Part shown: piece after piece, positions 25,027-63,227 of the stretch
Numbering within the stretch: the first letter of the stretch is position 1
Layout of the letters: each line of letters starts with the position of its first letter
Origin: Burkholderiales bacterium
GTDB lineage: Bacteria > Pseudomonadota > Gammaproteobacteria > Burkholderiales > SG8-39
Assembly (NCBI GenBank): GCA_035273665.1
Contig: DATEOW010000128.1
Coordinates: forward strand, 4,609-68,608
Reading direction: 5' to 3'
Length of the DNA stretch: 64,000 nt
Position numbers and translations under genes: made by a program
The notes under the pieces: generated by a model
Databases searched by the model: none
Told to the model about the DNA's origin: nothing
What the model saw: only the letters and a program-made list of their open reading frames with translations

Positions 25027-25139
25027 GAGGCGGCGGCGCCTGCGGGCGTGTGGGACGGCATGAAGATGGCTGCGGATGAAAGAAAGCAGGAGTTTAACGC
25101 AAGCTATGCAAGCGGCATAAAGGCCGAACGACTGCGGGC

Positions 25140-25167: not shown

Positions 25168-25197
25168 CCAGGCCAACCAGGATAAAGGAAGGCTGTG

Positions 25198-32252: not shown

Positions 32253-32268
32253 GGCAAGCCCTGTGCCC
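32253..32268 (-). promoter_or_regulatory. sigma54 -24/-12 promoter (SemiSWEET-like gene)
   Basis: Minus strand gGGCACagggcTTGCc. -12 is about 32 nt upstream of the ATG at 32222. Nearly identical to the PRC-barrel promoter at 41851-66. Confidence 0.7.
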
Positions 32269-32286
32269 GCGACCTGTGGACGCGGT

Positions 32287-32302
32287 GGGCATGGGTGCTG
32301 CA
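32287..32302 (+). promoter_or_regulatory. sigma54 -24/-12 promoter (isochorismatase-family gene)
   Basis: gGGCATgggtgCTGCA, back-to-back with the promoter at 32253-68. The predicted TSS at about 32312 favours ATG 32323, which is preceded by GGAG. Confidence 0.55.
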
Positions 32303-32908: not shown

Positions 32909-32924
32909 GGGCATGGGTATTGCA
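32909..32924 (+). promoter_or_regulatory. sigma54 -24/-12 promoter (Pro-rich protein gene)
   Basis: gGGCATgggtaTTGCA, 11 nt after the isochorismatase stop. -12 is about 70 nt upstream of the ATG at 32993. Confidence 0.7.
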
Positions 32925-32992: not shown

Positions 32993-33358
32993 ATGATGAC
33001 CACGACACATCCTGACGATCCGGTCGAAATCAAAGATCCGCCGACTAATCCGCAAATCCCGATGAGCGCACCAGTGGATAGCCAGCCGGGCGCGCAAGGC
33101 GATACTGAATGGCAGCGCCCTTATCAAGACAGCCCTGGGCCCGATACGCTTGCGCAGACTCCCGGACCCTTCGAGCCCGAGCGGAAGCATGATTCGCCCG
33201 GGAAGATTCCCATGCAGCCGCCGGCGGAGCCGCCGAATCCCAACCCCGTGCACGTGCCAAGCACGCCGCCGACTCCTGGCGATCTTCCTTCGAGTAATCC
33301 GGATGTGGTCGGCGAGCGGGCGCTTAACGACAGCCGACCGAAAGAAACGACGGAATAA
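32993..33358 (+). CDS. Proline-rich low-complexity hydrophilic protein (hypothetical)
   Basis: 121 aa, about 25% Pro, no TM or signal peptide. GAGAGGAAGA RBS and its own sigma54 motif. Confidence 0.5.
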   Translation: MMTTTHPDDPVEIKDPPTNPQIPMSAPVDSQPGAQGDTEWQRPYQDSPGPDTLAQTPGPFEPERKHDSPGKIPMQPPAEPPNPNPVHVPSTPPTPGDLPSSNPDVVGERALNDSRPKETTE

Positions 33359-35348: not shown

Positions 35349-35364
35349 GGCAAGCGGAGTGCCG
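35349..35364 (-). promoter_or_regulatory. sigma54 -24/-12 promoter (AI-2E transporter gene)
   Basis: Minus strand cGGCACtccgcTTGCc. -12 is about 35 nt upstream of the ATG at 35315. Back-to-back with 35397-412. Confidence 0.65.
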
Positions 35365-35396
35365 GGGTGCATTGCAATGTCGGCAAGTCCCGACGT

Positions 35397-35412
35397 CGGC
35401 ATGTGTCTTGCA
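35397..35412 (+). promoter_or_regulatory. sigma54 -24/-12 promoter (DUF1328 small-protein gene)
   Basis: cGGCATgtgtcTTGCA. -12 is about 65 nt upstream of the ATG at 35476. Confidence 0.7.
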
Positions 35413-35475: not shown

Positions 35476-35637
35476 ATGTTTTTTTATGCGTTGTTGTTTT
35501 TCATCATCGCTGGCGTTGCTGCACTCGTCGGCTTCAACGATGTCGCGCCGGACCTGCGCGTTGTGGGCAGACTGGTGTTCTATGGTTTTCTGATTGGCGG
35601 TTTCGCCTTTCTTCTGTTTGGCCTTTCCAAACGTTAA
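35476..35637 (+). CDS. DUF1328 (UPF0391) small membrane protein, 53 aa, absent from the ORF track
   Basis: My translation is MFFYALLFFIIAGVAALVGFNDVAPDLRVVGRLVFYGFLIGGFAFLLFGLSKR. It has two TM helices typical of DUF1328 and its own sigma54 motif. It falls below the 60-aa track cut-off. Confidence 0.65.
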   Translation: MFFYALLFFIIAGVAALVGFNDVAPDLRVVGRLVFYGFLIGGFAFLLFGLSKR

Positions 35638-35646: not shown

Positions 35647-35662
35647 AGGCACGGGGGTTGCT
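35647..35662 (+). promoter_or_regulatory. sigma54 -24/-12 promoter (Gln/Ser/Gly-rich protein gene)
   Basis: aGGCACgggggTTGCT. -12 is about 80 nt upstream of the ATG at 35741. The -12 box overlaps the small hairpin GTTGCT-cct-AGCAAC. Confidence 0.7.
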
Positions 35663-35740: not shown

Positions 35741-36106
35741 ATGTCGAAGCAAGATCAAAACTTCAGCAAACAGCAAGGTCAACAAGGTCGATCGAGTCAA
35801 TCGAGTCAATCGGGTCAATCGAGTGGCCAACAATCGCAAGCAGGCGGTAGTGGTCAGCAGGGTTCCTCCAGCGGCCAACGTAACAGCCAGCAAGGACAAA
35901 GCGGTCTACCGCATCAGGGCCAGCAGGGCAGGTCCTCAAGCCAAGCCGGGATCGGTCAACAAAGTCAGGAAGGGCGCTCGGGACAAATGGGCGGCCAACC
36001 GAAACGTTCCAACCAACAACAAGAAGGCCGTTCGCGCGATTCGAGTTTGGATGATGAAGAGTCTTCCCTCGGTTCATCGTCGAAGGGTTCTTCGATCAAG
36101 GAGTGA
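35741..36106 (+). CDS. Gln/Ser/Gly-rich intrinsically disordered hydrophilin-like protein
   Basis: 121 aa, no hydrophobic core (SKQQGQQGRSSQSSQSGQSSGQQSQAGGSGQQG...). AAAGGAG RBS, followed by a strong terminator. Confidence 0.6.
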   Translation: MSKQDQNFSKQQGQQGRSSQSSQSGQSSGQQSQAGGSGQQGSSSGQRNSQQGQSGLPHQGQQGRSSSQAGIGQQSQEGRSGQMGGQPKRSNQQQEGRSRDSSLDDEESSLGSSSKGSSIKE

Positions 36107-36381: not shown

Positions 36382-37773
36382 ATGCGTGACAGGGGACATC
36401 GCGGAGCGTTTAAAAAATCCAAATGGGCCTTAAGCGTTTCGCTTCTATGGTTGGGCGCCTGCAGTTTGCCGCCCATCCCGGAGACGGTCGCGGCCGCCCC
36501 CTCATCGGCGAATACCATACCGGTCGTACGCGATGCGAGCGGCATTCTCTCCGTTGAACAAGCTAAACGGGTTTATGCGTCGCTCGCACGCGAAGGCGAT
36601 ACCGATCTTTTACGTCGTCATTTGCGTTCCGCGGAGGGCAGCGAGGCCAGCCCCCTAGTCGTCGGGAACTCGGCGAAACTACTGATCGACGGGCCGGCTA
36701 CTCACAACGCGATGTTCGCAGCGATCGCCGCGGCTCGCGATCATGTGAATTTGCAAAGCTATATCGTTTCGGATGACGAGGCGGGCGCACGTTTAGTGAA
36801 GGCCTTAAGCGCGAAGCGTGCGCAGGGCGTGAAGGTGAATCTGCTTTATGACAGCGTCGGGTCGATGGACACCCCGAAAGAGTATTTCGAAAGCCTTAGA
36901 CAACAAGGCATCTCGGTTTGCGAGTTCAATCCGGTCAATCCCCTCAAGGCCAAAGGCGATTGGCAGATCAACAATCGCAATCATCGAAAGATATTGGTGG
37001 TCGATGGTCGCGTCGCCTTCACAGGCGGAATCAATATCAGCGGCGTTTATTCCGCCGGCTCTGCCGGCAGTGGGCGCAAGACCGCAGAAGAAGGCTGGCG
37101 CGATACGCATATCCGCATTGCCGGTCCGATCGCGGCTGAAGCGCAAAAATTGTTTGAGGCGGATTGGGCGCGTTATTGCGGCGCCATGGAAAAGGCCGCT
37201 TATTTTCCCAAGGTTGAACCCGCCGGTTCACTGGTCATGCGCATGACCGGCGGCGTCCCGAATCAGGGCAATGAAATCTATGGCGCATTGTTATCGGCCG
37301 TCGAGCACGCCGAGCGTAGTGTTCATCTCACCTATGGATATTTTGTTCCAGATCCACGTACGGTAGATACCTTGAAAGCCGCTGCGGCGCGCGGTGTCGA
37401 TGTGGTCCTGATGCTGCCCGGGTTCAGCGATTTCTGGGCGCCTTTATATGCAGGCCGTTCGTACTACGATGACTTGTTGGCAGCAGGCATCAAGATATAC
37501 GAACGACCCGATGCATTGCTGCATGCGAAAACCGCTGTAGTCGATGGCGTATGGTCTTCCATCGGATCAACGAATTTAGATTGGCGAAGTCTTGTGCACA
37601 ACTATGAAGCTGATGTCATCGTTTACGGCGATGAGTTCGGTGGACGCATGGAAGAACTATTCAGTAACGATTTGAATGTCTCGCGTCAGATCACACTTGA
37701 TCAATGGCGCGATCGTGGCGCGGTCAGTCGTTTCAAAGAATGGTTTGCCCGACGCTGGGGTTATCTCTTGTAG
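36382..37773 (+). CDS. Phospholipase D / cardiolipin synthase family lipoprotein (ClsB-like)
   Basis: Lipobox LWLGAC. Two HKD motifs (HRKILVVDGRVAFTGGINI and HAKTAVVDGVWSSIGSTNLD). Confidence 0.85.
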   Translation: MRDRGHRGAFKKSKWALSVSLLWLGACSLPPIPETVAAAPSSANTIPVVRDASGILSVEQAKRVYASLAREGDTDLLRRHLRSAEGSEASPLVVGNSAKLLIDGPATHNAMFAAIAAARDHVNLQSYIVSDDEAGARLVKALSAKRAQGVKVNLLYDSVGSMDTPKEYFESLRQQGISVCEFNPVNPLKAKGDWQINNRNHRKILVVDGRVAFTGGINISGVYSAGSAGSGRKTAEEGWRDTHIRIAGPIAAEAQKLFEADWARYCGAMEKAAYFPKVEPAGSLVMRMTGGVPNQGNEIYGALLSAVEHAERSVHLTYGYFVPDPRTVDTLKAAAARGVDVVLMLPGFSDFWAPLYAGRSYYDDLLAAGIKIYERPDALLHAKTAVVDGVWSSIGSTNLDWRSLVHNYEADVIVYGDEFGGRMEELFSNDLNVSRQITLDQWRDRGAVSRFKEWFARRWGYLL

Positions 37774-37800: not shown

Positions 37801-37816
37801 GGGCACGGGCTTTGCA
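37801..37816 (+). promoter_or_regulatory. sigma54 -24/-12 promoter (OsmB-like lipoprotein gene)
   Basis: gGGCACgggctTTGCA. -12 is about 38 nt upstream of the ATG at 37853. Confidence 0.75.
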
Positions 37817-37852: not shown

Positions 37853-38071
37853 ATGCGAAAGACTTTATTTGTCACGGTGTTGCTTGTTGGCGGCTTGAGC
37901 GGTTGCAGTACTTGGGACAATTTGTCGAGCCGTGAGAAGAGCGCCGCGATTGGTGCGGGCGTGGGCGGCGTAGCAGGCGCAGCTGTCACCAACGGAAGCG
38001 TGCTTGGAACCGCAGGTGGTGCCGCTGTAGGCGGTATCGTCGGTAACGAAGTGGGCAAGCGTCGCGACTAA
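37853..38071 (+). CDS. Glycine-zipper lipoprotein (OsmB-like)
   Basis: 72 aa. Lipobox GGLSGC. Gly-zipper GAGVGGVAGAAV...GGAAVGGIVG. Confidence 0.8.
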   Translation: MRKTLFVTVLLVGGLSGCSTWDNLSSREKSAAIGAGVGGVAGAAVTNGSVLGTAGGAAVGGIVGNEVGKRRD

Positions 38072-38085
38072 GCAACAGGTCGGGC

Positions 38086-38119
38086 AAAAAAACGGCGCCG
38101 AATGGCGCCGTTTTTTTTT
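38086..38119. terminator. Bidirectional intrinsic terminator between convergent genes
   Basis: AAAAAAACGGCGCC-gaat-GGCGCCGTTTTTTTTT, with an A-run on one side and a T-run on the other. Confidence 0.85.
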
Positions 38120-38131
38120 GGTCTCGCCGTT

Positions 38132-38482
38132 TTACTTGTACAGCCCTTCCGCGCGAGCAGCGTGAGTTTCGCGCTCACAGTTGCGCCGTTCCTCTGCCAT
38201 CAAGCTTCGGCATAGCGCTAAGTCCGACTTGAATTCGGCAGCCGCTTCGGCCTTGCTGCGCGGCGGCATCGAGGTTGGGACCGGGGTGTCTGTCCTACGC
38301 GTCTGGGAAGTCGAGGCGCCTATGGACCCGGACATCTGGCCGCTCGAAGGGGTGGCCGATTGCGTCGTCGAAGCGCCTACGGAACCGGAGGTTTGTGACG
38401 AGCTTGCTGGGGTCGGTAAATTTTCCGCGTTTGCGAGGCCTGTTGCGAGCAGTAAGGACAAGGCGGCGAGGGGTGCTCTCAT
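38132..38482 (-). CDS. Secreted Ser/Thr-rich hypothetical protein
   Basis: Signal peptide (...GLANA), an S/T/Q-rich disordered middle, and a C-terminal helix with two Cys. AGGAGA RBS. Confidence 0.55.
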   Translation of the reverse strand: MRAPLAALSLLLATGLANAENLPTPASSSQTSGSVGASTTQSATPSSGQMSGSIGASTSQTRRTDTPVPTSMPPRSKAEAAAEFKSDLALCRSLMAEERRNCERETHAARAEGLYK

Positions 38483-38517
38483 GGCGATTTCTCCTGTGTG
38501 TTAAGGCCCTTGCGTCA

Positions 38518-38533
38518 AGCAGCCGGCATGCCG
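38518..38533 (-). promoter_or_regulatory. sigma54 -24/-12 promoter (secreted S/T-rich protein gene)
   Basis: Minus strand cGGCATgccggCTGCT. -12 is about 37 nt upstream of the ATG at 38482. Back-to-back with the rpoN promoter. Confidence 0.5.
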
Positions 38534-38541
38534 ATGCAAAC

Positions 38542-38557
38542 TGGCATAGGTCTTGCG
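38542..38557 (+). promoter_or_regulatory. sigma54 -24/-12 promoter upstream of rpoN itself
   Basis: TGGCATaggtcTTGCG. -12 is about 74 nt upstream of the rpoN ATG at 38630. Confidence 0.75.
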
Positions 38558-38585
38558 AACCCTCGCGCATTGGTTGTGATGCGTG

Positions 38586-38608
38586 CCTTTTGCGCGCAAC
38601 GCAAAAGG
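38586..38608 (+). other. 9-bp stem hairpin in the rpoN 5' UTR
   Basis: CCTTTTGCG-cgcaa-CGCAAAAGG, with no U-tract, 21 nt upstream of the rpoN ATG at 38630 and 12 nt upstream of its GGAGGG RBS. Confidence 0.6.
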
Positions 38609-38629
38609 GTTCCGAACTTTGGAGGGAAT

Positions 38630-40096
38630 ATGGCTATTGCACTAGAAATGAGGCAAAAACAGCAGCTCGCCCTAACACCGCAGCTGCAACATGCCTTGAA
38701 GCTTCTCCAACTTTCCGCGCTGGAATTCGCGCAGGAAATGGGCGAGGCGATGAACAATAATCCTTTCATTGAGGAAGTCCCTCAAACCAAGACGGCGACC
38801 GCGGAAGTGCCGTTAGGCGTCCCTTCCGCCCCTGCGGCTGAAGTGCCGGTTGAGAGCGTTGTTTCACCGAGCGGCGCGACCACCGACATGGAAGGCGATC
38901 ACGATGGCGAAGAGCGCCTGGGCTACGAGTCCGCAACCTTTTCCAGCAACGGTTCCAGCGACGGCGACGGCGATTGGACGGACTGGAGTGAGCCGGAACC
39001 GACGCTACATGCCCACCTGCGCGAACAATTGCTGCTGTCGCAGCTTGGCGAACGCGACCGCGCCTTGGCGCATTTCATTGTCGATGCGCTCGACGACGAT
39101 GGTTATATCAAGCAGGAACTTGATGAGCTCGTAGACATCACACTTTCTGAACACGGTGTCACGGTTGACGATTTGCGCATGGCCCTTAAGTTGGTCCAGA
39201 CCCTGGATCCTCCGGGGATCGGCGCACGCAATTTAGAGGAGTGCCTCATGTTGCAACTCAACAATCACAAGGACAACCCGCGTGTGCACGAGGCTGCGAG
39301 CAAAATCGTGCAGAAACACCTGCAGGTGCTGGGCGCGCATGAGTTAGGCAAGCTGCAACAGCTCGTCGGTTGCGACGAAGACACCTTGCACAATGCGGTC
39401 GCGCTCATCCGCTCCCTCGATCCCAAGCCGGGATTGCGGTTTGGATCCGGCGAAGCGCGTTTCGTCGTGCCTGACGTCATGGTGAACAAGATTCGCGGCA
39501 AGTGGACAGTCACAATGAATCCCGCGGTGATGCCGCGTTTGCGAATCAACCGGAGCTACGCCGAAGCGCTGGCCGGCGGACAAAACAGCTATCTCACTAA
39601 ACAGCTCCACGAAGCGCGTTGGCTCTTGCGCAGCATGGAGCAGCGCTTCGTGACCATCCAGCGTGTTGCAGAAGCAATCGTTTCCCGCCAGAAGCTCTTT
39701 TTTGAATACGGCGAAGTCGCGATGAAGCCGATGGCGCTTAAACATGTCGCCGCGCAATTGGGCGTCCACGAATCCACGGTCTGCCGTGTGACAAATAATA
39801 AGTTCATGGCGACGCCTCGCGGTGTTTTCGAGTTCAAACATTTCTTCTCCCGTACGCTTTCCACGGACGCAGGTGGAGCGGCATCGGCCACGGCGGTGCG
39901 CGCTTTGTTGAAGGAAATGATCAATACGGAAAGTCCGACGCAGCCCTTGTCGGATGCACGCCTAGCGACTTTATTGTCTGAGCAAGGACTGCGGGTCGCC
40001 CGGCGCACCATAACCAAGTACCGCACGTTGATGCGGGTGCCTAGCGTCGAGGTCCGCCGTGCGCTCGGTAAACAAGCCGCCCGTGCCGCGGCCTGA
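38630..40096 (+). CDS. rpoN: RNA polymerase sigma-54 factor (RpoN), non-canonical genomic context
   Basis: ATG after GGAGGG. Region I MRQKQQLALTPQLQHALKLLQLS, an acidic region II, a core-binding region, an HTH, and the RpoN box ARRTITKYR. No lptB, hpf or ptsN neighbours. Confidence 0.92.
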   Translation: MAIALEMRQKQQLALTPQLQHALKLLQLSALEFAQEMGEAMNNNPFIEEVPQTKTATAEVPLGVPSAPAAEVPVESVVSPSGATTDMEGDHDGEERLGYESATFSSNGSSDGDGDWTDWSEPEPTLHAHLREQLLLSQLGERDRALAHFIVDALDDDGYIKQELDELVDITLSEHGVTVDDLRMALKLVQTLDPPGIGARNLEECLMLQLNNHKDNPRVHEAASKIVQKHLQVLGAHELGKLQQLVGCDEDTLHNAVALIRSLDPKPGLRFGSGEARFVVPDVMVNKIRGKWTVTMNPAVMPRLRINRSYAEALAGGQNSYLTKQLHEARWLLRSMEQRFVTIQRVAEAIVSRQKLFFEYGEVAMKPMALKHVAAQLGVHESTVCRVTNNKFMATPRGVFEFKHFFSRTLSTDAGGAASATAVRALLKEMINTESPTQPLSDARLATLLSEQGLRVARRTITKYRTLMRVPSVEVRRALGKQAARAAA

Positions 40097-40107
40097 AAGG
40101 AAAAAAC

Positions 40108-40701
40108 ATGTCTCAAATCGTTGCAGGTTGGTTTTCCACGCATGACCAAGCCGAGGAAGCGATGGCTGCGCTTGCTCGCGCCGGGTTTGTCGCCAGTGAA
40201 TACGAGTCCTTTTATCTCGCGCCGCCCGGACAACACGGCAGCGTTCCTTTTGGAGACGAAGTTCACCACGACGAAGGCGCCAGCGAAGTAGGCGGTGGAG
40301 CAGTCAAAGGTGCAGCTGTAGGCGGTGTCCTCGGCCTCGCAGCGGGTGCGGCCGTCGCGGCCGCAACCGCGCCTTTAGGTCCGGCCGCTGTCGTCGCGGG
40401 GGCCGGCATCGGTGCCTACGTGGGTTCGCTCGCAGGCGCTGTGAACAAAACCCATGACGGTGAGTTAGAGGAAGCAAGCGTTGAGGAGCCGGTCGAAAGA
40501 CCCGCCGGCGCACTCGTCGCAGTCTGTGTAGACCGCGGCGGCAGCGAGGCGCAGGCCATTGCCACGTTGCGCGCACAGGGCGCAGGCGGCGTCGAGAAAG
40601 CAGAAGGTGAATGGCGCGACGGACATTGGCAGGACTTCGATGCACGTGTGCCGCCGCATGTCTTGGGTGGAGGCGATCTGCCGCGCCCGGGTGCGTATTA
40701 A
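40108..40701 (+). CDS. Gly/Ala-rich stress protein with YflT/GSP17M-like N-terminal domain (hypothetical)
   Basis: The N-terminus IVAGWFSTHDQAEEAMAALARAGF resembles the general-stress-protein-17M fold. Starts 11 nt after the rpoN stop, so it is probably co-transcribed. Confidence 0.4.
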   Translation: MSQIVAGWFSTHDQAEEAMAALARAGFVASEYESFYLAPPGQHGSVPFGDEVHHDEGASEVGGGAVKGAAVGGVLGLAAGAAVAAATAPLGPAAVVAGAGIGAYVGSLAGAVNKTHDGELEEASVEEPVERPAGALVAVCVDRGGSEAQAIATLRAQGAGGVEKAEGEWRDGHWQDFDARVPPHVLGGGDLPRPGAY

Positions 40702-40721
40702 GCAGCTTACCGATCCTAAAC

Positions 40722-40750
40722 AAAAGGGCGGCATTGCCGCCCTTTTTCTT
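40722..40750. terminator. Bidirectional intrinsic terminator
   Basis: AAAAGGGCGGC-att-GCCGCCCTTTTT between convergent genes. Confidence 0.8.
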
Positions 40751-40774
40751 GCTGATGCGCGGCGCCGGAGGTGT

Positions 40775-41242
40775 TCAGGCCCAGTAAGGTTGCGTGCCGT
40801 AGTAACTGTAAACGCTCTGCGCCCAACTGCTATCGGCCATGCTCGGCCAACTATCCTTATCGAAGCCGGGTGCGTTCTCGAGCCGTTCCTTGTCGATATC
40901 CAGGACGAAGCACTCGCGTTCGACGTCAAGCGTCAACGCATTCCACGGAATCGCAAATAGCTTGTCCCCCATTCCCAATAGTCCGCCCGAAGCAAGCACG
41001 GCATACGCAATTTTCCCCGCGCTGACGTCGAGCATGATTTCGTCGATGCTTCCCAGCTTCTCGCCGGCGCTATTGACGACCTCATCGCCCTCGAGCGTGC
41101 TGGCGGCCATGATCCGCGGACCAGGCCCGGCGTCGAGACGATCTTCGTCGTCGATACCGACGATGCGTGCACCTGCACCGCTACCCGATCCCAAGGTCAG
41201 GGTGGAATCGCTATTGGGATCGTTCTGGAATTGAATGGCCAT
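40775..41242 (-). CDS. PRC-barrel domain protein
   Basis: VVNSAGEKLGSIDEIMLDVSAGKIAYAVL...FAIPWNAL...ERLENAPGFD. Confidence 0.8.
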   Translation of the reverse strand: MAIQFQNDPNSDSTLTLGSGSGAGARIVGIDDEDRLDAGPGPRIMAASTLEGDEVVNSAGEKLGSIDEIMLDVSAGKIAYAVLASGGLLGMGDKLFAIPWNALTLDVERECFVLDIDKERLENAPGFDKDSWPSMADSSWAQSVYSYYGTQPYWA

Positions 41243-41850: not shown

Positions 41851-41866
41851 GGCAAGCGCTGTGCCC
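41851..41866 (-). promoter_or_regulatory. sigma54 -24/-12 promoter (PRC-barrel gene pair)
   Basis: Minus strand gGGCACagcgcTTGCc. -12 is about 73 nt upstream of the ATG at 41779. Confidence 0.7.
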
Positions 41867-41889
41867 GTGTGCGCGCCTCGTGACAACGC

Positions 41890-41905
41890 AGGCATGGCGA
41901 GTGCA
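41890..41905 (+). promoter_or_regulatory. sigma54 -24/-12 promoter (PA2169-family...topoisomerase IB operon)
   Basis: aGGCATggcgaGTGCA. -12 is about 54 nt upstream of the ATG at 41958. Back-to-back with 41851-66. Confidence 0.5.
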
Positions 41906-43314: not shown

Positions 43315-44427
43315 ATGGTCGACCAGGCCCTGGCCGACGCGGGTTTATGCTTTAGCTCGGACAACGATCCGGGTATCCGGCGTAAACGGAGCGGCCGGGG
43401 TTTTTCATACGTGGACGAGAATGGCGTGCGGATCGAGGACGAATCGGTTCTGCAACGCATTCGTTCACTCGCCATTCCACCGGCCTACAAAGAGGTGTGG
43501 ATTTGCACCAAGGCCAATGGTCATCTGCAAGCGACCGGGATCGATGCACGAGGGCGCAAACAATACCGCTATCACCCAGACTGGCGTGCGGTGCGCGATG
43601 CGGATAAATTCGCGCGCCTTTGCGATTTCGGGCGTGCATTGACCCGAATACGCAAGCGCGTCAGTGCAGATCTGAAGCTCCCGGGTTTGGCACGTGACCG
43701 TGTGATCGCGACCGTCGTACGGCTGTTGGATCGCACTTCTATTCGCATCGGCAACGAACAGTACGCACGCGAGAATAAGTCTTACGGCCTCACGACCTTG
43801 CGCACGCGCCATGTCCGCCTGCGCGGAAACCTTATCCAATTTGAGTTCCGGGGCAAGTCAGGCGTACTCCATTCGATTTCAGTGACGGACCCGCTGGCCG
43901 CAGAGGTGGTGAGAGGCTGTCTTGATTTGCCTGGGCAAGAACTTTTTCAATACCTCGACGACACGGGCGCACGACGCACGGTGACGTCTTCGGATGTCAA
44001 CGCCTATTTATGCGCGGCAGGGGGGCAGGATTTCAGTGCAAAGGACTTCCGCACTTGGTATGCGACCATGGATGCGCTGGAGATGCTCAGCGCTTTGCAG
44101 TTCGAGACGCAGCGGGAAGCGAAGGCGCACATTAAGGAAAGTCTTCATCGCATCGCACAACGCCTGGGAAACACGCCGACGATGTGCCGCAAGGCCTACG
44201 TCCATCCGGGAGTGTTGCAGGCTTTTATGGAAGGTCGTTTAAGCAGCGTCGTGCGCGCTGGCCGGCGCAATAAACGGGAACAGCTCTTGCAACTTTTGCA
44301 GGACCTCTCTCGGGGCGCGTCGCGGCTCGCCAAGCAACCAAAAAAAACAAGAAGCTCGGCCCGTCCGGCAGTCCCGAAGGCAAGAGCTTTTAACCTATCG
44401 CAAGTAAAGGAGCAGATATGGCTGTAG
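43315..44427 (+). CDS. DNA topoisomerase IB (poxvirus/eukaryote-like bacterial TopIB)
   Basis: IPPAYKEVWI...ATGIDARGRKQYRYHP, RIGNEQYARENKSYGLTTLR, FRGKSG, FSAKDFRTW, and the catalytic-Tyr motif CRKAYVHP. Confidence 0.85.
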   Translation: MVDQALADAGLCFSSDNDPGIRRKRSGRGFSYVDENGVRIEDESVLQRIRSLAIPPAYKEVWICTKANGHLQATGIDARGRKQYRYHPDWRAVRDADKFARLCDFGRALTRIRKRVSADLKLPGLARDRVIATVVRLLDRTSIRIGNEQYARENKSYGLTTLRTRHVRLRGNLIQFEFRGKSGVLHSISVTDPLAAEVVRGCLDLPGQELFQYLDDTGARRTVTSSDVNAYLCAAGGQDFSAKDFRTWYATMDALEMLSALQFETQREAKAHIKESLHRIAQRLGNTPTMCRKAYVHPGVLQAFMEGRLSSVVRAGRRNKREQLLQLLQDLSRGASRLAKQPKKTRSSARPAVPKARAFNLSQVKEQIWL

Positions 44428-45170
44428 AAATCTCAACTGCGCAACGGCGCATGTTCTTTCAGCCGATTTCCTGGGCGGCGATCTTTGCTGCGCTTGCAGT
44501 CGGCATTGCAGTGCAAATGCTCTTGATGCTTCTTGGGCTGGCCTTTGGCGCGTCTGTTGTCGAGCCCGTTGAAACCAGTGCTCGCGAAGTATCACTGAGC
44601 GCAACGACTTGGAGTACCGGCAGCATGATTATCGCCGCCTTCATCGGCGGATATGTCGCCTCCCGTTCATCGGGTCTCCGGCGAAAGGGTGACGGCATGC
44701 TGCACGGCGCCGTAGCGTGGGCTGCTACGACTTTGTTGTATGCGGTCCTTGCGTCGACAGTCCTCGGCCAAGCAACCGCGGGCGTGTTCGGCGCGCTACG
44801 TCCGCTCGTAGTGAGTTCATTGCCCGCTACCGGCGAGATTGCACAGAGCGCGCAAAGCGGTGAGCAGGCGCGTGCTGAAGTGCAACGTTCGCTAGAATCG
44901 GCCGGACTCACGAGTGAGCAGGCGCTGAACATTGTGGATCAGATGGCCGCCGTGTCGGGTGATCCACAAGCTTCTCCCGAGTCGCAAGCGCGTGCTGAAG
45001 AGGCCGCTGACCGGGTGGGCACCGCGACGGGATGGTTGAGCGCGGCAGTATTACTTTCCCTGTTGGCAGGCGTATTGGGCGGTCTTGTCGGTACAGTTGC
45101 GCAACGCCGCGTCACGACACGACAAGCGGATTATGGGGACGGACGCGTGCTCTCGCGCACAACTATTTAA
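44418..45170 (+). CDS. Integral membrane protein (hypothetical)
   Basis: 250 aa with about 5 TM segments. Overlaps the TopIB stop by 10 nt, so it is the last gene of that operon. Confidence 0.6.
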   Translation: MAVEISTAQRRMFFQPISWAAIFAALAVGIAVQMLLMLLGLAFGASVVEPVETSAREVSLSATTWSTGSMIIAAFIGGYVASRSSGLRRKGDGMLHGAVAWAATTLLYAVLASTVLGQATAGVFGALRPLVVSSLPATGEIAQSAQSGEQARAEVQRSLESAGLTSEQALNIVDQMAAVSGDPQASPESQARAEEAADRVGTATGWLSAAVLLSLLAGVLGGLVGTVAQRRVTTRQADYGDGRVLSRTTI

Positions 45171-45177: not shown

Positions 45178-46203
45178 TTATCGTTGTGCAGCAGATCCCC
45201 GCCCTTTACGCGGGGATTTGTTTTTGGGCGTAGCGAAAGCGCGGGGCAACGGTTCTTCCAGTCGTTCGCAGAAATAAGCCACGGTACGTTGCAAGCCTGC
45301 ATCGAGTTCGACAATGGGATTCCATTCCAGAGCGCGCGCCGCAAGTGAGATGTCGGGACAGCGCTGCATCGGATCATCGGCCGGCAAGTCGCGATAGACC
45401 AACTCGGAATCGGAGCCGGTCAACGCAATAATCTGCTCGGCCAGCTCCCCGATGGTGGATTCGCATGGATTCCCCAGATTGACCGGGCCGATGAAATCTT
45501 CCGGGGTCGCCATCAACCGCACCAGTCCTTCGATCAAGTCGGTGACATAACAGAACGAGCGAGTTTGTTCGCCGCGTCCGTAAATTGTTATCGGTGCACC
45601 GCGCAAGGCTTGCACAATGAAGTTGGACACGACCCGACCGTCGTCGGCCTGCATGCGCGGGCCATAAGTGTTGAAGATACGCGCGATCTTTACTTTGACG
45701 CGATGCTGCCGGTGATAGTCGAAGTAAAGCGTCTCTGCGCAACGCTTGCCTTCGTCATAGCATGCGCGTGGGCCGATCGGATTCACATGTCCCCAATAAT
45801 GCTCAGGCTGAGGATGGAGTTTTGGATCGCCGTACACCTCGCTCGTGGAGGCTTGCAGGATGGGTACTTTCAACCGCTTTGCCAGACCCAGCATGTTAAT
45901 GGAACCATGCACGCAGGTTTTGAGCGTTTGAACGGGATCGTTCTGATAGTGAATCGGTGAAGCGGGGCAGGCGAGGTTATAGATCTGATCCACTTCGACA
46001 TACAGCGGGAAGGTGATGTCATGGCGCAACAGTTCGAAGCGCGGGTGGCGCAGGAGATGTACGATGTTCTCGCGGTCGCCTGTATAGAAGTTGTCCACAC
46101 ACAGCACTTCGTCCCCGTTTTGCAAGAGACGCTCGCATAGATGCGAGCCGAGAAATCCGGCGCCGCCGGTCACCATCACGCGTTGAGGTCCGCTTCTTTT
46201 CAT
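45178..46203 (-). CDS. UDP-glucuronate decarboxylase (UDP-xylose synthase)-like SDR
   Basis: [14 protein letters not shown], YxxxK (YDEGKR), and strong UXS-like blocks ([31 protein letters not shown]). About 25-aa basic C-terminal tail. Confidence 0.8.
45195..45225 (+). terminator. Intrinsic terminator of the 41958-45170 operon
   Basis: ATCCCCGC-cctttac-GCGGGGAT followed by TTGTTTTT. It lies inside the 3' tail of the convergent UXS ORF. Confidence 0.7.
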
Positions 46204-46214
46204 CTTTGCTCCAA

Positions 46215-47162
46215 TCAGGCGCAAACGCGCCGAAAGACCGCCAGCCAGTCGGCAACAAAGCGATCGATATGAAAACGCTCACACGCCAATTCCCGCGCGG
46301 TCCGGCCAAGGGCTCTCGCTTCATCCGGGTTGTGCAGCAGCGCCTGCATGCATTCGACGAGTCGCTCGACCCGGGTGTCGATATAACCGCTTTCCCCATC
46401 GCGAATGACCGCGCTCATTTCCGTCGTGGCAAGGGCAACAATCGGCAAACCCACCATCATTGCCTCGATCACCGCGAGCCCCATGCTGGTCCAGCGAATG
46501 GGATTGAAGAAAAAACGATAACGCGCCATGGCTGCCGGTAAAGCATTGTTTTCGATTTCACCCAAACCGCCGACGCGTTCCGCATCCATACCCACAAGGT
46601 CAAGCGGTACACGTTCGCGCACCGTGTGGAAGACATCCGCGCCCAGCCGTCTGCCTCGGCGCGGCAAGTTATTGACCACCACAATGCCGCGTTCCAACTC
46701 GCCGCTGTATTGGGCGGCGCTCAGCGGTTTTACGCCGTGCTCCACGACCGTGGTCGGCGTGCGTCCGCTATCCCACATGAGCCGATTGAAATGCGTGCAA
46801 TGCACGAGTAGGGCATTCGCGTCATCCACCCAATGACGGGTGTCCGTGGGGTGCTCTTGCGGCGGATCATGTTCGAGATAAATGGCGGGTAAACGACGCT
46901 GTGCATCGGAGAGTAGATTCAACCGATCTTTTTCCCACCCTTGCTTGTGCTGGTAGAGCACACAATCGAAGGCCTGCTCGCGCACATGTTCGATGGGGAG
47001 ATCAATAAGGTTGTCTCCCCAAGGGAGCGTGCCGGTTCTGCCGGCATAGCCCGGGGACCGCATTGCGTCGGCAATGACGTAGAAGTCATGGGGCACTTGC
47101 GATAGGTAATACAGATAATTGCCGTGTACATGCCAGGTCAAGATGCGGAGGCGTTTTGCCAT
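46215..47162 (-). CDS. Glycosyltransferase (GT-B fold, GT1/GT4-like)
   Basis: 315 aa. C-terminal EX7E-like region ([15 protein letters not shown]). Confidence 0.7.
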
Positions 47163-47177
47163 GCTGACTCCAGAAGG

Positions 47178-48227
47178 TTAGGCCGCAAGACTGCTGTGCT
47201 GTCTGAGCATTCGCAGCGCGGTATTCGTCACTTCGGCGACCGTGACGCCGCGCGCACATTCGTGTTCGGTCGGGCAGGTGTGATACGCACAGGGACGGCA
47301 GGGCACGTCGCGCCACAACACCGGGTGTTTGCCGGTATCCAAGGGCGCCCAGCGACGCACGTCAGCGCCGGAAGACACCACGACACTGGGTGTGCCGACC
47401 GCCGTTGCGATATGCGAGATCCCTGTGTCGTTGCACACGACCAGGCGCGCCTCTGCGACCAGCGCAGCGGAAGCGCCCATGCTGGTACGGCCGACGAGAT
47501 TGCGCGCCGGGTGGCGCATGCGTCTTTGTAGCGTCTCGCCGATTTCGCGTTCTTCGCCGCTACCGGTCAACACGATTTCAAAGCCGAGATCGGCGATGGC
47601 ATCGGCGACCGCTGCGAAGGCATCTACAGGCCAACGGCGCGAGGGCAATCTCGCGCCTGCATGGACGCATACATAGGGACGAACAATATTGGATTCGGTA
47701 GCCAAAACCGCTGCGAGCTCCTCGCGTTCAGGCGGATGAATCGGAAACTCCAACGCCGTTCCGCATGAAGCAATACCCATCGCTTCCATGAGCTGGAGGT
47801 AAATCAAAATCTCGTGAGTTCCTGTTGGCCATACCGGGAAATGCGCAGGTACTGCCGCAGGATCGGGGCGATAGCCAAAAACAGCCTTCGCCCCGAGACT
47901 GCCGACAATGAGATTCACAATGCCTCCCGAGCCATGCATTTGAATGGCCAAATCGAACTGCCGCATTTGCGCATCAATAAAAAAATCAGGTAGTGCATCC
48001 AGGTCGGGTTCCCGTTCCGGCAGACCAGGGAAGCCGGGAAACGCCATGAGTTCGTCGACATAGGGGAAGCGGCGAACGAAATCGGCGGCCCAGGGCAGGC
48101 CGATTAATGTGATGCGCGCCGCCGGATAAGCAGCCCGCAACGCCCGCATGGCTGGCACAGTGCAAAGCAGATCGCCCAATTGCAGCGCGCGAAAGACTGC
48201 GATGTTGCGAATGCTTTCGCTGGGCAT
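47178..48227 (-). CDS. Glycosyltransferase family 9 (heptosyltransferase-like)
   Basis: Start MPSESIRNIAVFRALQLGDLLCTVPAMRAL (GT9 N-terminal motif). CNDTGISHIATAVGTP near the C-terminus. Confidence 0.8.
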   Translation of the reverse strand: MPSESIRNIAVFRALQLGDLLCTVPAMRALRAAYPAARITLIGLPWAADFVRRFPYVDELMAFPGFPGLPEREPDLDALPDFFIDAQMRQFDLAIQMHGSGGIVNLIVGSLGAKAVFGYRPDPAAVPAHFPVWPTGTHEILIYLQLMEAMGIASCGTALEFPIHPPEREELAAVLATESNIVRPYVCVHAGARLPSRRWPVDAFAAVADAIADLGFEIVLTGSGEEREIGETLQRRMRHPARNLVGRTSMGASAALVAEARLVVCNDTGISHIATAVGTPSVVVSSGADVRRWAPLDTGKHPVLWRDVPCRPCAYHTCPTEHECARGVTVAEVTNTALRMLRQHSSLAA

Positions 48228-48235
48228 TGCCGTTC

Positions 48236-49237
48236 TCAAAATGTGCTCCGGTAGAGCGAGCAAGTGCGGCAAATCTGCGGCGGTAGGTCGGTCGCCAGGG
48301 CATGGCGGAAGTTTCCATAGGCAGGGCCGTTCCACACTTCTTCCACCCCTTGCGCGAGCATGTTGCCGAGGTTGACGCGATCGGCGGTCACCATGCAACA
48401 AGGCACCGCGTCGCCGCGATAATTCAGATAGGCACCGCGTAAGGGCCAGTCGCAACCGGGCGCACGCAAAGGCGCATCGCCTTCAAGCGCCGGCAGCCGT
48501 AGCCTGATACCCAATTCCGCCGCTCGATCGCGTGCAGCCGAAAAGGCGGTAGCGATGAGACTGCGATCTGCCGACAGCAAGCTTTGTGTGCCGTAGAAAT
48601 TGCGCATCGGAATATAAGAAGGAGGAAGCTCGGTTTCGCCAAAATCATGCGCGAGATGCTGGACGAAGATCGAGTCGATGCTCAACTCGTGTGCGAGCCC
48701 CACGAGCGCGCTGAGTTGATCAAGATTCGCCCGCATAACGACCGTCACAATGCGCAATTCCGGCGTTGCGGAACCCGTTTCGCGCTTGGCCTGAACGATG
48801 CGACGGATATTGCGCAATACCTTGACGAAGGAAGCGCCGCGACGAATGTTTTCATAGACTTCGGCTGTCGCGGCATCGAGCGAAATGTGTAGTGCACCCA
48901 ATCCGCTTTTCACGCACTCGTGAGCGCGTTCTTCGGTCAGCAAGGTCAGGTTGGAATTTGTCGAAACGAAAAGCCCGCGTGCGACGGCATGACGCACCAT
49001 GCGGAAAAATTCCGGATGCAATAGCGGTTCGCCCAGGCCTTGGAGATGGAGTTCGTCCGCGTCCGAGAACCCATCCAATAGGCGGCAAAAATCGTCGAAG
49101 CTCAAATGCGCGGGTTGACCGTCAGTCGGCAGATCTTTACGTAAATCGATCGCGCACATCGCGCAATGCAGATTGCATTGCCCCACCGGTTCGATCTGGA
49201 CAAAACGTGGCAGCGGAATATCGGCGCGTGCGTTCAT
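48236..49237 (-). CDS. Radical SAM enzyme with C-terminal SPASM-like Cys cluster
   Basis: CNLHCAMC (CX3CX2C) at the N-terminus. C-terminal CDWP...VPCCMV...CRTCSLY. ATGA overlap with the upstream GT2 stop. Confidence 0.8.
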   Translation of the reverse strand: MNARADIPLPRFVQIEPVGQCNLHCAMCAIDLRKDLPTDGQPAHLSFDDFCRLLDGFSDADELHLQGLGEPLLHPEFFRMVRHAVARGLFVSTNSNLTLLTEERAHECVKSGLGALHISLDAATAEVYENIRRGASFVKVLRNIRRIVQAKRETGSATPELRIVTVVMRANLDQLSALVGLAHELSIDSIFVQHLAHDFGETELPPSYIPMRNFYGTQSLLSADRSLIATAFSAARDRAAELGIRLRLPALEGDAPLRAPGCDWPLRGAYLNYRGDAVPCCMVTADRVNLGNMLAQGVEEVWNGPAYGNFRHALATDLPPQICRTCSLYRSTF

Positions 49238-50223
49238 GCGAAACGCACTCGAAACTTGAAAGCGCCGGCGATGCGCCAAAAGACGGCGACCGGCGGAATG
49301 AGAGCGGAGGTCACCAGCATTTCGGCAATGTGCCGCCATGAGCGCTGCGTATGGCGTAGACGCCGATAGGTGAAATGCGCCGTCCATGTCGCCCACGCGA
49401 GCAATGCAAAGCCGGCGAGGGATTCAGTGTCCGCGATCAGGCCGATGAGGGCGAGTCCCAGCAAGAAAACGGCGAAGTAGTATGACCATGGCCCATGCGA
49501 TGCGATTCGGTGACGATAGAGCGCCGGATGTTTTTTGAAAAGCAGCGCCTCAAAGAAATTGTTCTTTTGCGTTTTGAGACTCACGCCCCAAGGCGCGGGG
49601 CGCACGGGATGCAATACGAGAGCCTCGGGCGCGGTGCCGATATATTGGCCCGATCGCAACAACGAGAATTGCAGATCGGAGTCTTCACGCCATGGCCGCC
49701 GAAAGCGCTCGTCGAAGCCGTCGACCAATTCCAGCGCGGTACGTCGGACGAAACAGTTAGCGGTCACAAATTCCGCAGTATCGAGGCCGGCCGTATTGAG
49801 TTCCCAGTCTGTCGGTTCAGGCGGAAGCGGGACCTTCACTTTGCCGGTCACGGCCGCATGCTGGGCTTGCATCGCTTTCAGGCCTTCGGCTAACCAGTTT
49901 CGCGACGGCACCGTGTCGTCATCGGTGAATGCGATGACGTCTGCTTGCGCCTTTCTCCAGCCCACATTGCGCGCAGCCGCCGGTCCGCCCCGCGGGGAGG
50001 GGCTGCGCAAGTAACGTATAAAGGTCTGGGCCGATTCCCTGGCCATGCGTGTGACGAGTGCAAGCGTATCGTCGGACCAACCATCATCCACCACAATGAT
50101 TTCGTATTCGGCGGCGGGCAGACGTTGATGCCGCAGGGCGATCAAACATCGCTGCAATAGAACCGGCCGCCCGCAAGTGGGAACAACGACGGAAACTCGG
50201 GGCGTGAAGTCGTCAGTCTTCAT
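49234..50223 (-). CDS. Glycosyltransferase family 2 with C-terminal TM helices
   Basis: VSVVVPTCGR...IVVDDG...FTDDD (DxD). Hydrophobic C-terminal third. Confidence 0.8.
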   Translation of the reverse strand: MKTDDFTPRVSVVVPTCGRPVLLQRCLIALRHQRLPAAEYEIIVVDDGWSDDTLALVTRMARESAQTFIRYLRSPSPRGGPAAARNVGWRKAQADVIAFTDDDTVPSRNWLAEGLKAMQAQHAAVTGKVKVPLPPEPTDWELNTAGLDTAEFVTANCFVRRTALELVDGFDERFRRPWREDSDLQFSLLRSGQYIGTAPEALVLHPVRPAPWGVSLKTQKNNFFEALLFKKHPALYRHRIASHGPWSYYFAVFLLGLALIGLIADTESLAGFALLAWATWTAHFTYRRLRHTQRSWRHIAEMLVTSALIPPVAVFWRIAGAFKFRVRFA

Positions 50224-51986
50224 GCCACGGCCCGAACCGCGTTTTGCGAAAACTCACCAGCGGCAACCGCTTGTGAACGCTTGCTCAACACATAGGAGCC
50301 CATTACCAGCGCATCGATCGGGGTGCTATAGAAGGCCTCGATAGCGTCGCGGGGACTACAGACGATCGGTTGGCCACGGCTGTTGAACGAGGTGTTCACC
50401 AACACGGGCACACCGGTCCGCCGCTCGAACGCCTTGAGCAGATTGTAATAAGCCGGGTTATGTTTGCCGTCTACGGTCTGCACGCGCGCGGTACGATCCA
50501 CGTGCGTCGCGGCGGGAATATGCGACAACTTTTCTTCGCGGACGTCGTAGATGAATAGCATGAAGGGCGCCTTGCGCGTCGCCTTGCCGCGCACGAACCA
50601 GTCATCGAAACGCTCTTCGAGCACTACCGGCGCGACAGGGCGAAAATCTTCGCGGTCTTTCAGCTCATTCAAACGGGCCTTCATATCCGGATTGATGGGG
50701 GAGGCGAGAATCGATCGTGCCCCCAAGGCGCGCGGGCCGAATTCCATTCGCCCCTGGAACCAGCCGATGATCTGGTCTTGTGCGAGCAACGCTGCGGTTT
50801 CTTCCGCCGGATCCTCCATGCGGCGAAATGGAATCTTGCTCCATTGGAGTAGCGCTTCAATGTCCTCGTCGTCATAGGCTGGGCCGAGATAAGCGTGATC
50901 CATCTGCCAAGCCCTCGGGCCATGCCGTTCACGCAAATCTACCCATAGCGCGGCGCCGAGTGCCGTGCCAGCGTCGCCTGCGGCGGGTTGTACCCATACT
51001 TCATCGAAGAGTCCGGCATCGCGGATTCGCGCGTTCATGACGCAATTGAGGGCAACACCGCCGGCCATTGCGAGTTTGGTCTCGCCACTTCGATGGCGTA
51101 ACCACGTTGCCAATTTGACGGCACTTTCTTCCAAGGCCTTTTGCAAGGAGGCGGACACGTCGAAATGACGCGCATCGAAGCGGCCTCCGCGTGGCCGCGC
51201 AGGCCCAAAATGCTTTTCCAAATCGGCATCGACGAGGCGATAACCGCCTTCATTATCGATTTGCAGCATCTTGCGGAACTTGTCGAGATATCGAGGTGTA
51301 CCGTAGGAGGCAAGCGCCATGACTTTGTATTCATCCGAAGAATGCAGAAAGCCTAGCCATCTTGTCGTGTCCTCATAGAGCATGCCGAGCGAATGCGGCA
51401 TATCAACCTGCTTGATGCGCTGGAGTTGTCCATCTCGCCAAATGCCATAAGTGGTGGTCGCCGCTTCGCCCCGGCCGTCGAGGGTCATGACGGCGCAATG
51501 CTCGAAAGGCGCGGCGAGGCATGCGCTTGCCTCGTGGGCGAGGTGATGCTCCACGTAATGCCATGCATATCGCAACTGTCCTTCGAAGCGTGCGCGCAAA
51601 TGTAAGGGTGCGCCGTCCGCCAACTGGCGCGAAGCATTGTGTACGTATAGATAGAAGAGGGGGTCCCAAGGACCTGCGCCTTCCGCTGAAGGCGCGGAAG
51701 GATGCAGCGGTAGGTTGATCGCATGATGATCGGAAGGTTGGTAAGCCAATTCCCGTGGATCGAGAGAGTAAGCGACATGGTCCACGTCGGAGAGCTTGAT
51801 GCCCGCTTCACGCAAGCAGTAATCAATCGCGTTGAAAGGCAATTCCCACACGGTGAACGGTACGGGTCGCTTGGCATGCTTGATCCGACTGAAACGTTCT
51901 TCTTCGGCCGCCGCGAGCACGACCCCGTCGCGCACTAGGCAAGCGGCACTATCGTGGAACGCAGCGTTGATTCCCAATGTATACAT
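50220..51986 (-). CDS. Carbamoyltransferase (NodU/CmcH family)
   Basis: MYTLGINAAFHDSAACLVRDG...EEERFSRIKH...HHLAHEASA...GGVALNC. 588 aa from ATG 51986. Confidence 0.85.
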   Translation of the reverse strand: MYTLGINAAFHDSAACLVRDGVVLAAAEEERFSRIKHAKRPVPFTVWELPFNAIDYCLREAGIKLSDVDHVAYSLDPRELAYQPSDHHAINLPLHPSAPSAEGAGPWDPLFYLYVHNASRQLADGAPLHLRARFEGQLRYAWHYVEHHLAHEASACLAAPFEHCAVMTLDGRGEAATTTYGIWRDGQLQRIKQVDMPHSLGMLYEDTTRWLGFLHSSDEYKVMALASYGTPRYLDKFRKMLQIDNEGGYRLVDADLEKHFGPARPRGGRFDARHFDVSASLQKALEESAVKLATWLRHRSGETKLAMAGGVALNCVMNARIRDAGLFDEVWVQPAAGDAGTALGAALWVDLRERHGPRAWQMDHAYLGPAYDDEDIEALLQWSKIPFRRMEDPAEETAALLAQDQIIGWFQGRMEFGPRALGARSILASPINPDMKARLNELKDREDFRPVAPVVLEERFDDWFVRGKATRKAPFMLFIYDVREEKLSHIPAATHVDRTARVQTVDGKHNPAYYNLLKAFERRTGVPVLVNTSFNSRGQPIVCSPRDAIEAFYSTPIDALVMGSYVLSKRSQAVAAGEFSQNAVRAVA

Positions 51987-51987
51987 G

Positions 51988-55008: not shown

Positions 55009-55024
55009 TGCAACCCCTATGCCG
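55009..55024 (-). promoter_or_regulatory. sigma54 -24/-12 promoter of the nine-gene glycosylation operon
   Basis: Minus strand cGGCATaggggTTGCA. -12 is about 40 nt upstream of the ATG at 54970. An AT-rich tract (55030-55075) lies between it and the palindrome at 55162-88. Confidence 0.7.
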
Positions 55025-56161: not shown

Positions 56162-56177
56162 TGGCCCGATTGCTGCG
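56162..56177 (+). promoter_or_regulatory. Possible sigma54 -24/-12 promoter upstream of the activator gene
   Basis: TGGCCCgattgCTGCG, 8 nt after the SDR stop and about 119 nt upstream of the ATG at 56295. Confidence 0.4.
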
Positions 56178-58687: not shown

Positions 58688-58703
58688 TGCAATGCCTATA
58701 CCC
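58688..58703 (-). promoter_or_regulatory. sigma54 -24/-12 promoter (hemerythrin gene)
   Basis: Minus strand gGGTATaggcaTTGCA. -12 is about 52 nt upstream of the ATG at 58637. Confidence 0.55.
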
Positions 58704-59043: not shown

Positions 59044-59059
59044 GGGCACGTGCCTTGCG
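59044..59059 (+). promoter_or_regulatory. sigma54 -24/-12 promoter (elaB/yqjD-yqjE-yqjK-like operon)
   Basis: gGGCACgtgccTTGCG, starting 2 nt after the upstream stop. -12 is about 63 nt upstream of the ATG at 59121. Confidence 0.7.
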
Positions 59060-63207: not shown

Positions 63208-63223
63208 TGCAAGGCACATGCCT
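63208..63223 (-). promoter_or_regulatory. sigma54 -24/-12 promoter (yihY-asmA operon), overlapping its partner on the opposite strand
   Basis: Minus strand aGGCATgtgccTTGCA. -12 is about 55 nt upstream of the ATG at 63154. Confidence 0.65.
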
Positions 63224-63227
63224 TGCC
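63212..63227 (+). promoter_or_regulatory. sigma54 -24/-12 promoter (polytopic membrane protein gene at 63256)
   Basis: aGGCACatgccTTGCc. -12 is about 30 nt upstream of the ATG at 63256. It shares 12 of its 16 bp with the minus-strand promoter. Confidence 0.65.

Follow-up and report, generated by a model that had tools for sequence, protein, structure and literature searches.

We analyzed a 64,000-nt stretch (the window) of contig DATEOW010000128.1, which comes from an uncultured soil Burkholderiales bacterium. The window contains a sigma-54 gene that we read as an rpoN2-type paralog. It would form a two-gene operon transcribed from a sigma-54 promoter. The operon lies inside a stress island that has sigma-54 promoters of its own and encodes a sigma-54 activator with a GSFTGA loop. 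We put the probability of this reading at about 0.65. The arrangement of an rpoN2-type gene with a sigma-54 promoter is not new, as it is already published for the orthologous gene of Ralstonia. What makes the locus valuable is its setting, a conserved, sigma-54-dense stress island with a dedicated GSFTGA activator, which leads to a testable function for RpoN2.

The protein contains 488 residues and has all of the RpoN hallmarks that the first-pass annotation saw in it. It matches three Pfam families: Sigma54_AID (PF00309, residues 5-49; 3e-14), Sigma54_CBD (PF04963; 2e-59), and Sigma54_DBD (PF04552; 2e-59). Aligned with its relatives, Ralstonia RpoN2, and Escherichia coli RpoN, it has a normal region I that is alignable to E. 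coli RpoN and an acidic region II. The RpoN box, ARRTITKYR, is encoded at positions 39999-40025. The open reading frame (ORF) is open upstream to a GTG at 38498. The homologs indicate a start at the 38630 ATG, with GGAGGG ahead of it. The protein neighboring the window RpoN bears the locus tag VJU83_07930. All 120 of 120 homologs were from metagenomes or metagenome-assembled genomes (MAGs), with no cultured member. All 120 also contain the box variant A459T (ARRT[IV]TKYR). We dropped A459T as a clade-specific specificity determinant because approximately 34 of 150 diverse sigma-54 representatives carry it.

The best match to the protein in the plasmid collection was RpoN2 from the Ralstonia solanacearum megaplasmid, with 49-50% identity. 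Identity was 37-39% to the enterobacterial RpoN proteins (E. coli and Salmonella) and approximately 34% to the rhizobial plasmid copies. Scans of genome and metagenome contigs with the protein retrieved almost only Acidobacteria, at 30-38% identity. The only close matches in those scans were L001, L090, and L091 (loci are given here by L numbers). A simple neighbor-joining tree, made without bootstrap and without a labeled Burkholderiales RpoN1, placed Ralstonia RpoN2 and the window clade together in a 26-leaf group that leaves out E. coli RpoN as well as 119 further representatives. The activator and a DUF1328 gene are common to the window and the Ralstonia locus, and the orthology covers both the sigma factor and the activator. 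These results support the reading of the gene as an rpoN2-type paralog, orthologous in kind to Ralstonia RSp1671. The first-pass annotation had already suggested a paralog of this type, and the grouping and the 50% versus 37-39% identity bear it out.

We compared the window with nine related loci on long contigs. RpoN identity was 56-89% among them, and the comparison spans 50-89% with Ralstonia included. rpoN was in the same kind of island in all nine related loci and was never beside lptB or hpf.

The candidate promoter of the rpoN operon, TGGCATaggtcTTGCG, matches TGGCAC-N5-TTGC. The first-pass annotation had placed a sigma-54 motif 74 nt before the ATG. The motif holds, with its exact spacing, enrichment, and conservation, and the distance is 72 nt. 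A -24/-12 motif precedes rpoN in L088, L081, L084, L086, L170, L171, L172, L091, and the Ralstonia locus L089. L087 instead has the motif ahead of a small ORF that lies immediately 5' of rpoN, and L086 has a second site in that same position. In all, the motif was present before rpoN or its operon in 10 loci and Ralstonia, and the spacers and flanks have diverged between loci. Conservation across loci of 58-71% G+C supports its reading as a sigma-54 promoter. A consensus scan of 38000-40800 found no sigma-70-like promoter, although this kind of scan is crude. In Ralstonia, TGGCACAGCCTTTGCA is located 63 nt before rpoN2, whose expression requires rpoN1 and rises in minimal medium (Ray et al. 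2015, PMC4371752). The central idea of the first-pass annotation was thus right, but it had called a sigma-54 promoter on a sigma-54 gene unusual, and Ray et al. had already reported both the promoter and the rpoN1 dependence for the Ralstonia ortholog.

A divergent motif, CGGCATgccggCTGCT, was correctly noted 8 bp from the rpoN promoter. It is 35 nt before a 116-aa ORF and is kept in L088 (9901->9886) and L081 (9883->9868). The small ORF (MRLLDPRF...) of L086 (9584-9830) and L087 (9506-9760), the two most distant relatives, has its own TGGCAC promoter between the divergent gene and rpoN. rpoN of L087 may be cotranscribed with this ORF because no promoter for rpoN itself lies within 220 nt.

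The gene could instead be the only sigma-54 gene of its genome, moved away from lptB and hpf and transcribed mainly from a sigma-70 promoter that was not detected. The sole role of the -24/-12 site would then be to let the gene regulate itself, positively or, through occupancy, negatively. Other bacteria are known in which rpoN is negatively autoregulated. There is one rpoN in the DNA read, which is this contig alone, the homologs all lack a cultured source, and a crude scan could miss a sigma-70 promoter. We nevertheless consider a sole sigma-54 improbable. Ralstonia RpoN2, with which the protein groups and has an activator and a neighborhood in common, is a proven second copy. Housekeeping sigma-54 targets or canonical neighbors were present in none of the 10 loci. 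A sole sigma-54 gene that depended entirely on a sigma-54 promoter would stay off after any loss of its product.

The leader between the promoter and the ribosome-binding site (RBS) contains a 9-bp stem with no U-tract after it in the sequence, as the first-pass annotation described. The stem is present, but its significance did not hold up. It is very unlikely that it is a regulatory RNA element for the translation or stability of rpoN mRNA. The inverted repeat is perfect and has a 5-nt loop, and small hairpins are also found in the leaders of L084, L171, and L172. The minimum-energy fold of the leader pairs otherwise, however, and its z-score of -1.89 is not significant (8 of 200 shuffles fold equally well). 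The stem is missing from the 89%-identical relative L088 (leader z-score, +0.10), and neither its position nor its sequence is conserved. The leader folds of seven other loci had z-scores from +0.31 to -1.93. An Rfam search of the leader gave no match, and the stem does not sequester the RBS. It is probably incidental. We also considered the repeat as an activator-binding site and rejected this, with no similar copies found elsewhere in the window.

The window contains 13 matches to the strict pattern GGCAY-N5-TTGC. The expected number from 200 dinucleotide shuffles was 2.17 +/- 1.38, with a maximum of 7. Twelve of the 13 fall within 32.2-63.3 kb, and 11 of these 12 are followed at 30-100 nt, in the same orientation, by an RBS and start codon. 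With relaxed criteria, further sites appear before the isochorismatase, UDG, DUF2383, SDR, hemerythrin, small membrane protein, and activator genes. This brings the island to approximately eighteen candidate promoters. In the relatives, where the loci span 8-21 kb and G+C contents run from 58% to 71%, the count of strict motifs is 4-10 per locus and the expectation 0.2-0.7. The comparative evidence that the island motifs are functional promoters is strong. We infer from sequence that they are active and which sigma-54 would read each of them. It is extremely unlikely that the motifs are sites of another transcription factor or chance matches: GGCATGCC-like palindromes occur in several of them (38526-38533 and 63208-63227), and a loose consensus search with two mismatches showed no enrichment (40 matches versus 36 expected). 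Against this, the enrichment of the strict pattern is six-fold for the window and 10- to 50-fold for the relatives, the distance from GG to GC is always 10 nt, 11 of the 12 island motifs of the window point at start codons, and the same island encodes a sigma-54 and a sigma-54 activator.

Divergent back-to-back pairs of motifs, 8-32 bp apart, are present at 32253-32302, 35349-35412, 38518-38557, 41851-41904, and 63208-63227. One pair overlaps as a palindrome, and the same pairs are found in L081 and L088. Two holoenzymes would hardly be able to bind both sites of a pair together, and there is no space between them for a shared upstream enhancer.

The island also encodes an NtrC-family response regulator with REC, AAA+, and HTH_8 domains. 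Its identity is 77-83% to the relatives' island activators and, across the full length, 63% to the REC-type activator beside Ralstonia rpoN2. GSFTGA replaces the usual GAFTGA loop (residue 216) in the window activator, in all of its orthologs, and in both Ralstonia activators next to rpoN2. RSp1667 and RSp1668 carry GSFTGA and have been named candidate regulators of rpoN2 (Lundgren 2015, PMC4676750). The shared loop hints at a dedicated pairing of sigma factor and activator. A motif of the form TGG(C/T)NC-N5-(T/C)TGCG is kept 117-151 nt before the activator ATG in 6 of 6 loci.

The activator leader contains an AT-rich palindrome, GTAA-N3-TTAC, at 56232-56242. It occurs approximately once per locus, only in the activator-gene leader, and may be a regulator binding site. 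The other copies are in L084 (15948), L086 (5151), L087 (2564), L171 (19431), L172 (18990), L088 (16871), and L089 (19343). The Ralstonia copy is approximately 110 bp upstream of an RSp1674-type promoter.

In the mechanism that we propose, nearly every transcription unit of the island would have its own sigma-54 type promoter. The units encode small membrane and glycine-zipper proteins, DUF1328, PRC-barrel, DUF2383, DUF4142, DUF883/holin-X, hemerythrin, PLD, AI-2E, UDG, and GT4 proteins. A presumed stress signal would lead to phosphorylation of the activator. The activator would then remodel the sigma-54 holoenzyme at two sites, its own promoter and that of rpoN2, these being the only ones in the island with the canonical TGG. 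Rising RpoN2 would turn on the structural stress promoters, giving a circuit with feed-forward and positive feedback.

The base before the -24 GG, which the strict pattern leaves free, separates two classes of promoter. The canonical -24 element is TGGCA (PMC12096077). Among ten nonduplicate loci, this base was T in 9 of 11 rpoN-operon promoters and in 2 of 66 other island promoters (G in 36, C in 18, and A in 10). The difference gave a Fisher p value of 1.8e-8, uncorrected for shared ancestry. It could mean that a housekeeping sigma-54 reads the regulators and RpoN2 reads the rest. Greater strength of the regulator promoters could account for it equally well. Being widespread, the RpoN-box variant found in the clade favors neither. 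In its fuller form, the proposal is of a general-stress-type response built as a sigma-54 cascade with two tiers. In it, the housekeeping sigma-54 would read the TGG promoters of rpoN2 and the activator, and RpoN2 with the GSFTGA activator would prefer the structural promoters. We regard this cascade as a tentative and unlikely proposal. If true, it would be a natural case of sigma-54 paralogs dividing promoter space at position -26, and it would give a function to the enigmatic Burkholderiales RpoN2. Promoter differences between sigma-54 paralogs are placed at -11 in Rhodobacter sphaeroides (as cited in PMC3162934 and PMC4676750) and at -12 in Bradyrhizobium japonicum (PMC3162934).

Several observations weigh against the reading of an rpoN2-type paralog within a stress regulon. 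A housekeeping rpoN would have to be located elsewhere in the same genome, and this contig is the only part of the MAG that was read. No convincing common k-mer or palindrome was found upstream of 54 island promoters as a shared upstream activator sequence. The rpoN promoter of L170 and one of the two in L086 have G, not T, before the GG. The activator gene is 16 kb from rpoN in the window (4.6 kb in L084). The Ralstonia locus contains only 3 strict motifs versus 1.26 expected, so a dense regulon of this kind has been shown in the uncultured clade only.

The second gene of the predicted two-gene operon encodes a Gly/Ala-rich protein of 197 residues. It starts 11 nt after the rpoN stop, the spacing given in the first-pass annotation. 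That annotation had also called it YflT-like (general stress protein 17M), which was not borne out. The protein matched no Pfam family even at E<=1, and a PDB profile search gave nothing meaningful. All 105 homologs were annotated as hypothetical, and none has a Pfam domain save one with Gly-zipper_Omp. The gene follows rpoN in six relatives (L081, L086, L087, L088, L170, and L171). A homolog in a Candidimonas MAG is unlinked to rpoN. Judging from this copy, the protein is more probably a further stress protein than a partner of sigma-54. Most simply, it would be a membrane stress protein. The features of the operon and the island are listed in Table 1.

Table 1. Features of the rpoN operon and the surrounding island, with coordinates in the window
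Feature	Coordinates	Strand	Context or basis
Sigma-54 type promoter	32253..32268	-	Before 86-aa membrane ORF (32222->31962) and DUF748/AsmA gene (31876->28310)
Sigma-54 type promoter	32909..32924	+	Before 121-aa ORF 32993-33358
Sigma-54 type promoter	35349..35364	-	Before AI-2E transporter gene (ATG ~35315, down to 34170); L088 6965->6950
Sigma-54 type promoter	35397..35412	+	Before DUF1328 gene 35476-35637; kept in L088, L081, L087
Sigma-54 type promoter	35647..35662	+	Before 121-aa ORF 35741-36106, then PLD gene 36382-37773; L088 counterpart at 7230
Sigma-54 type promoter GGGCACgggctTTGCA	37801..37816	+	Before glycine-zipper lipoprotein gene 37853-38071; kept in L088, L081
116-aa Ser/Thr-rich secreted protein gene	38132..38482	-	RBS and ATG 35 nt past divergent motif; no Pfam match
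Divergent sigma-54 type promoter CGGCATgccggCTGCT	38518..38533	-	Back to back with rpoN promoter, 8 bp apart
Sigma-54 type -24/-12 promoter of rpoN operon TGGCATaggtcTTGCG	38542..38557	+	Exact GG-N10-GC spacing; conserved in relatives
9-bp inverted repeat CCTTTTGCG cgcaa CGCAAAAGG in 5' leader, probably incidental	38586..38594 / 38600..38608	+	Read from sequence
rpoN2-type sigma-54 gene, 488 aa	38630..40096	+	Three Pfam sigma-54 domains, alignment, neighbor-joining grouping
197-aa Gly/Ala-rich membrane-type protein gene, uncharacterized family	40108..40701	+	11-nt gap containing AAGGA after rpoN stop
Terminator-like hairpin GGGCGGC-att-GCCGCCC then TTTTTCTT, end of rpoN operon	40726..40750	+	Read from sequence; unlisted by consensus scan
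Sigma-54 type promoter	41851..41866	-	Before PRC-barrel genes 41779->41282 and 41242->40775; kept in L081, L088, L084, L171
Weaker sigma-54 type motif AGGCATggcgaGTGCA	41889..41904	+	Before DUF2383 gene (start 41958); L081 DUF2383 counterpart AGGCATgccggCTGCA
Sigma-54 type promoter	55009..55024	-	Before GT4 glycosyltransferase gene (ATG ~54970); L087 counterpart at 4551
Degenerate sigma-54 type motif TGGCCCgattgCTGCG	56162..56177	+	Before activator gene
NtrC-family response-regulator enhancer-binding protein (REC, AAA+, HTH_8), GSFTGA loop	56295..57695	+	Pfam
Sigma-54 type motif GGGTATaggcaTTGCA	58688..58703	-	Before hemerythrin gene; counterparts in L084, L172
Sigma-54 type promoter	59044..59059	+	Before DUF883-like gene 59121-59426, then holin-X-like gene and 139-aa ORF
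Sigma-54 type promoter	63212..63227	+	Before ORF starting at 63256; overlaps reverse-strand copy 63223->63208

The Pfam scan covered every ORF from approximately 23.4 to 48.5 kb and most ORFs in the rest of the window. None of the scanned ORFs was lptB, hpf, or ptsN. Upstream of rpoN are genes for Usp, DUF748/AsmA, isochorismatase, UDG, an AI-2E transporter, DUF1328, a PLD-type enzyme, a glycine-zipper lipoprotein, and the secreted 116-aa protein. Downstream of the operon are genes for two PRC-barrel proteins, DUF2383, DUF4142, and topoisomerase IB. Past a glycosyltransferase block are the SDR, NtrC-type activator, and hemerythrin genes and the DUF883/holin-X group. The earlier statement that rpoN is flanked by stress genes agrees with this list, notably the glycine-zipper, PLD, AI-2E, UDG, PRC-barrel, DUF2383, DUF4142, and topoisomerase IB genes. 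The DUF1328 gene of Ralstonia is preceded by CGGTAC..TTGCT.

The block that splits the island (45178-55030) contains lipopolysaccharide and sugar genes for an epimerase, GT1, GT9, GT2, a carbamoyltransferase, and GT4. The only sigma-54 motif there is the one ahead of the last GT4 gene. In the relatives, GT4-DUF2334-GT4-PAP2 genes come directly after rpoN. A conserved membrane ORF of approximately 250 residues, without a Pfam family, comes after topoisomerase IB both in the window (43315-45170) and in L084 (13024-15875). In several relatives, Ku comes next after this ORF, just ahead of the activator gene, which gives the segment a DNA-repair and dormancy flavor.

Farther upstream, a Ser/Thr kinase fused to a cyclic-nucleotide-binding domain (23728-25176, minus strand) is divergent from clpB (25195-27807, plus strand). 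A Usp gene follows, and there is no strict sigma-54 motif here. A 765-aa ORF at 9175-11472 (minus strand) had no Pfam match at E<=0.001. The adjacent ORFs 21981-22307 and 22359-23015 also had no Pfam matches. They share a near-identical (T/C)GGC(G/A)CTGCCCATGCA at 22027-22042 and 22406-22421 and may be paralogs.

RpoN2 of Ralstonia and Burkholderia has been studied in mutants without a clear phenotype, and the role of Ralstonia rpoN2 has been termed enigmatic (Ray et al., PMC4371752). In the uncultured clade, the rpoN2 module is found amid dense, conserved sigma-54 promoters, which suggests what this poorly understood paralog controls. The clade promoters front genes that belong to general stress regulons elsewhere, encoding DUF1328, glycine-zipper, PRC-barrel, BON, CsbD-like, ferritin, Ku, topoisomerase IB, and HSP20 proteins. 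We predict that RpoN2, together with the GSFTGA activator, governs a response that helps the cell survive stress, desiccation, or stationary phase. The split between T and other bases at -26 bears on how two sigma-54 factors might share out promoters.

The closest known system is R. solanacearum rpoN2 (RSp1671). It is likewise a second-type sigma-54 away from the lptB-hpf locus, with 50% identity to the window protein. Its sigma-54 promoter is 63-75 nt upstream, and it adjoins a REC-type activator with a GSFTGA loop (63% identical). Its locus holds two sigma-54 activators, DUF1328, DUF2334, and a PAS kinase. DUF1328 is near the gene in both, and DUF2334 and the PAS kinase are common to relatives of the window clade. 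The Ralstonia locus differs in having few sigma-54 motifs, no large stress-gene block, and no 197-aa downstream gene, and its RpoN box is ARRTVAKYR rather than ARRTITKYR.

RpoN2 of Burkholderia pseudomallei is encoded on chromosome 2. It is a second sigma-54, as the window protein would be, and is dispensable for nitrogen or amino-acid use (PMC4745423). Its mutant has lower expression of the stress catalase katE (PMC4745423). The likeness is by description only, and no sigma-54 stress island is described for it. Plasmid RpoNp of Bradyrhizobium sp. DOA9 is an accessory sigma-54 with a role in stress adaptation, and its predicted sites shift from TGG to CGG before the -24 GG (PMC13207237). It is a distant alphaproteobacterial protein from a symbiotic plasmid, and Bradyrhizobium plasmid RpoN is approximately 38% identical over part of its length. 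Both DOA9 sigma factors bound the same promoters in gel shifts (PMC13207237). RpoN1-4 of Rhodobacter sphaeroides and RpoN2 of Rhizobium etli are also sigma-54 paralogs with promoter preferences and cognate activators of their own. They serve other regulons (flagella and nitrogen fixation) and are not close kin of the window protein, with 34% identity for R. etli plasmid RpoN. R. etli rpoN2 is itself reportedly controlled by sigma-54 and NifA.

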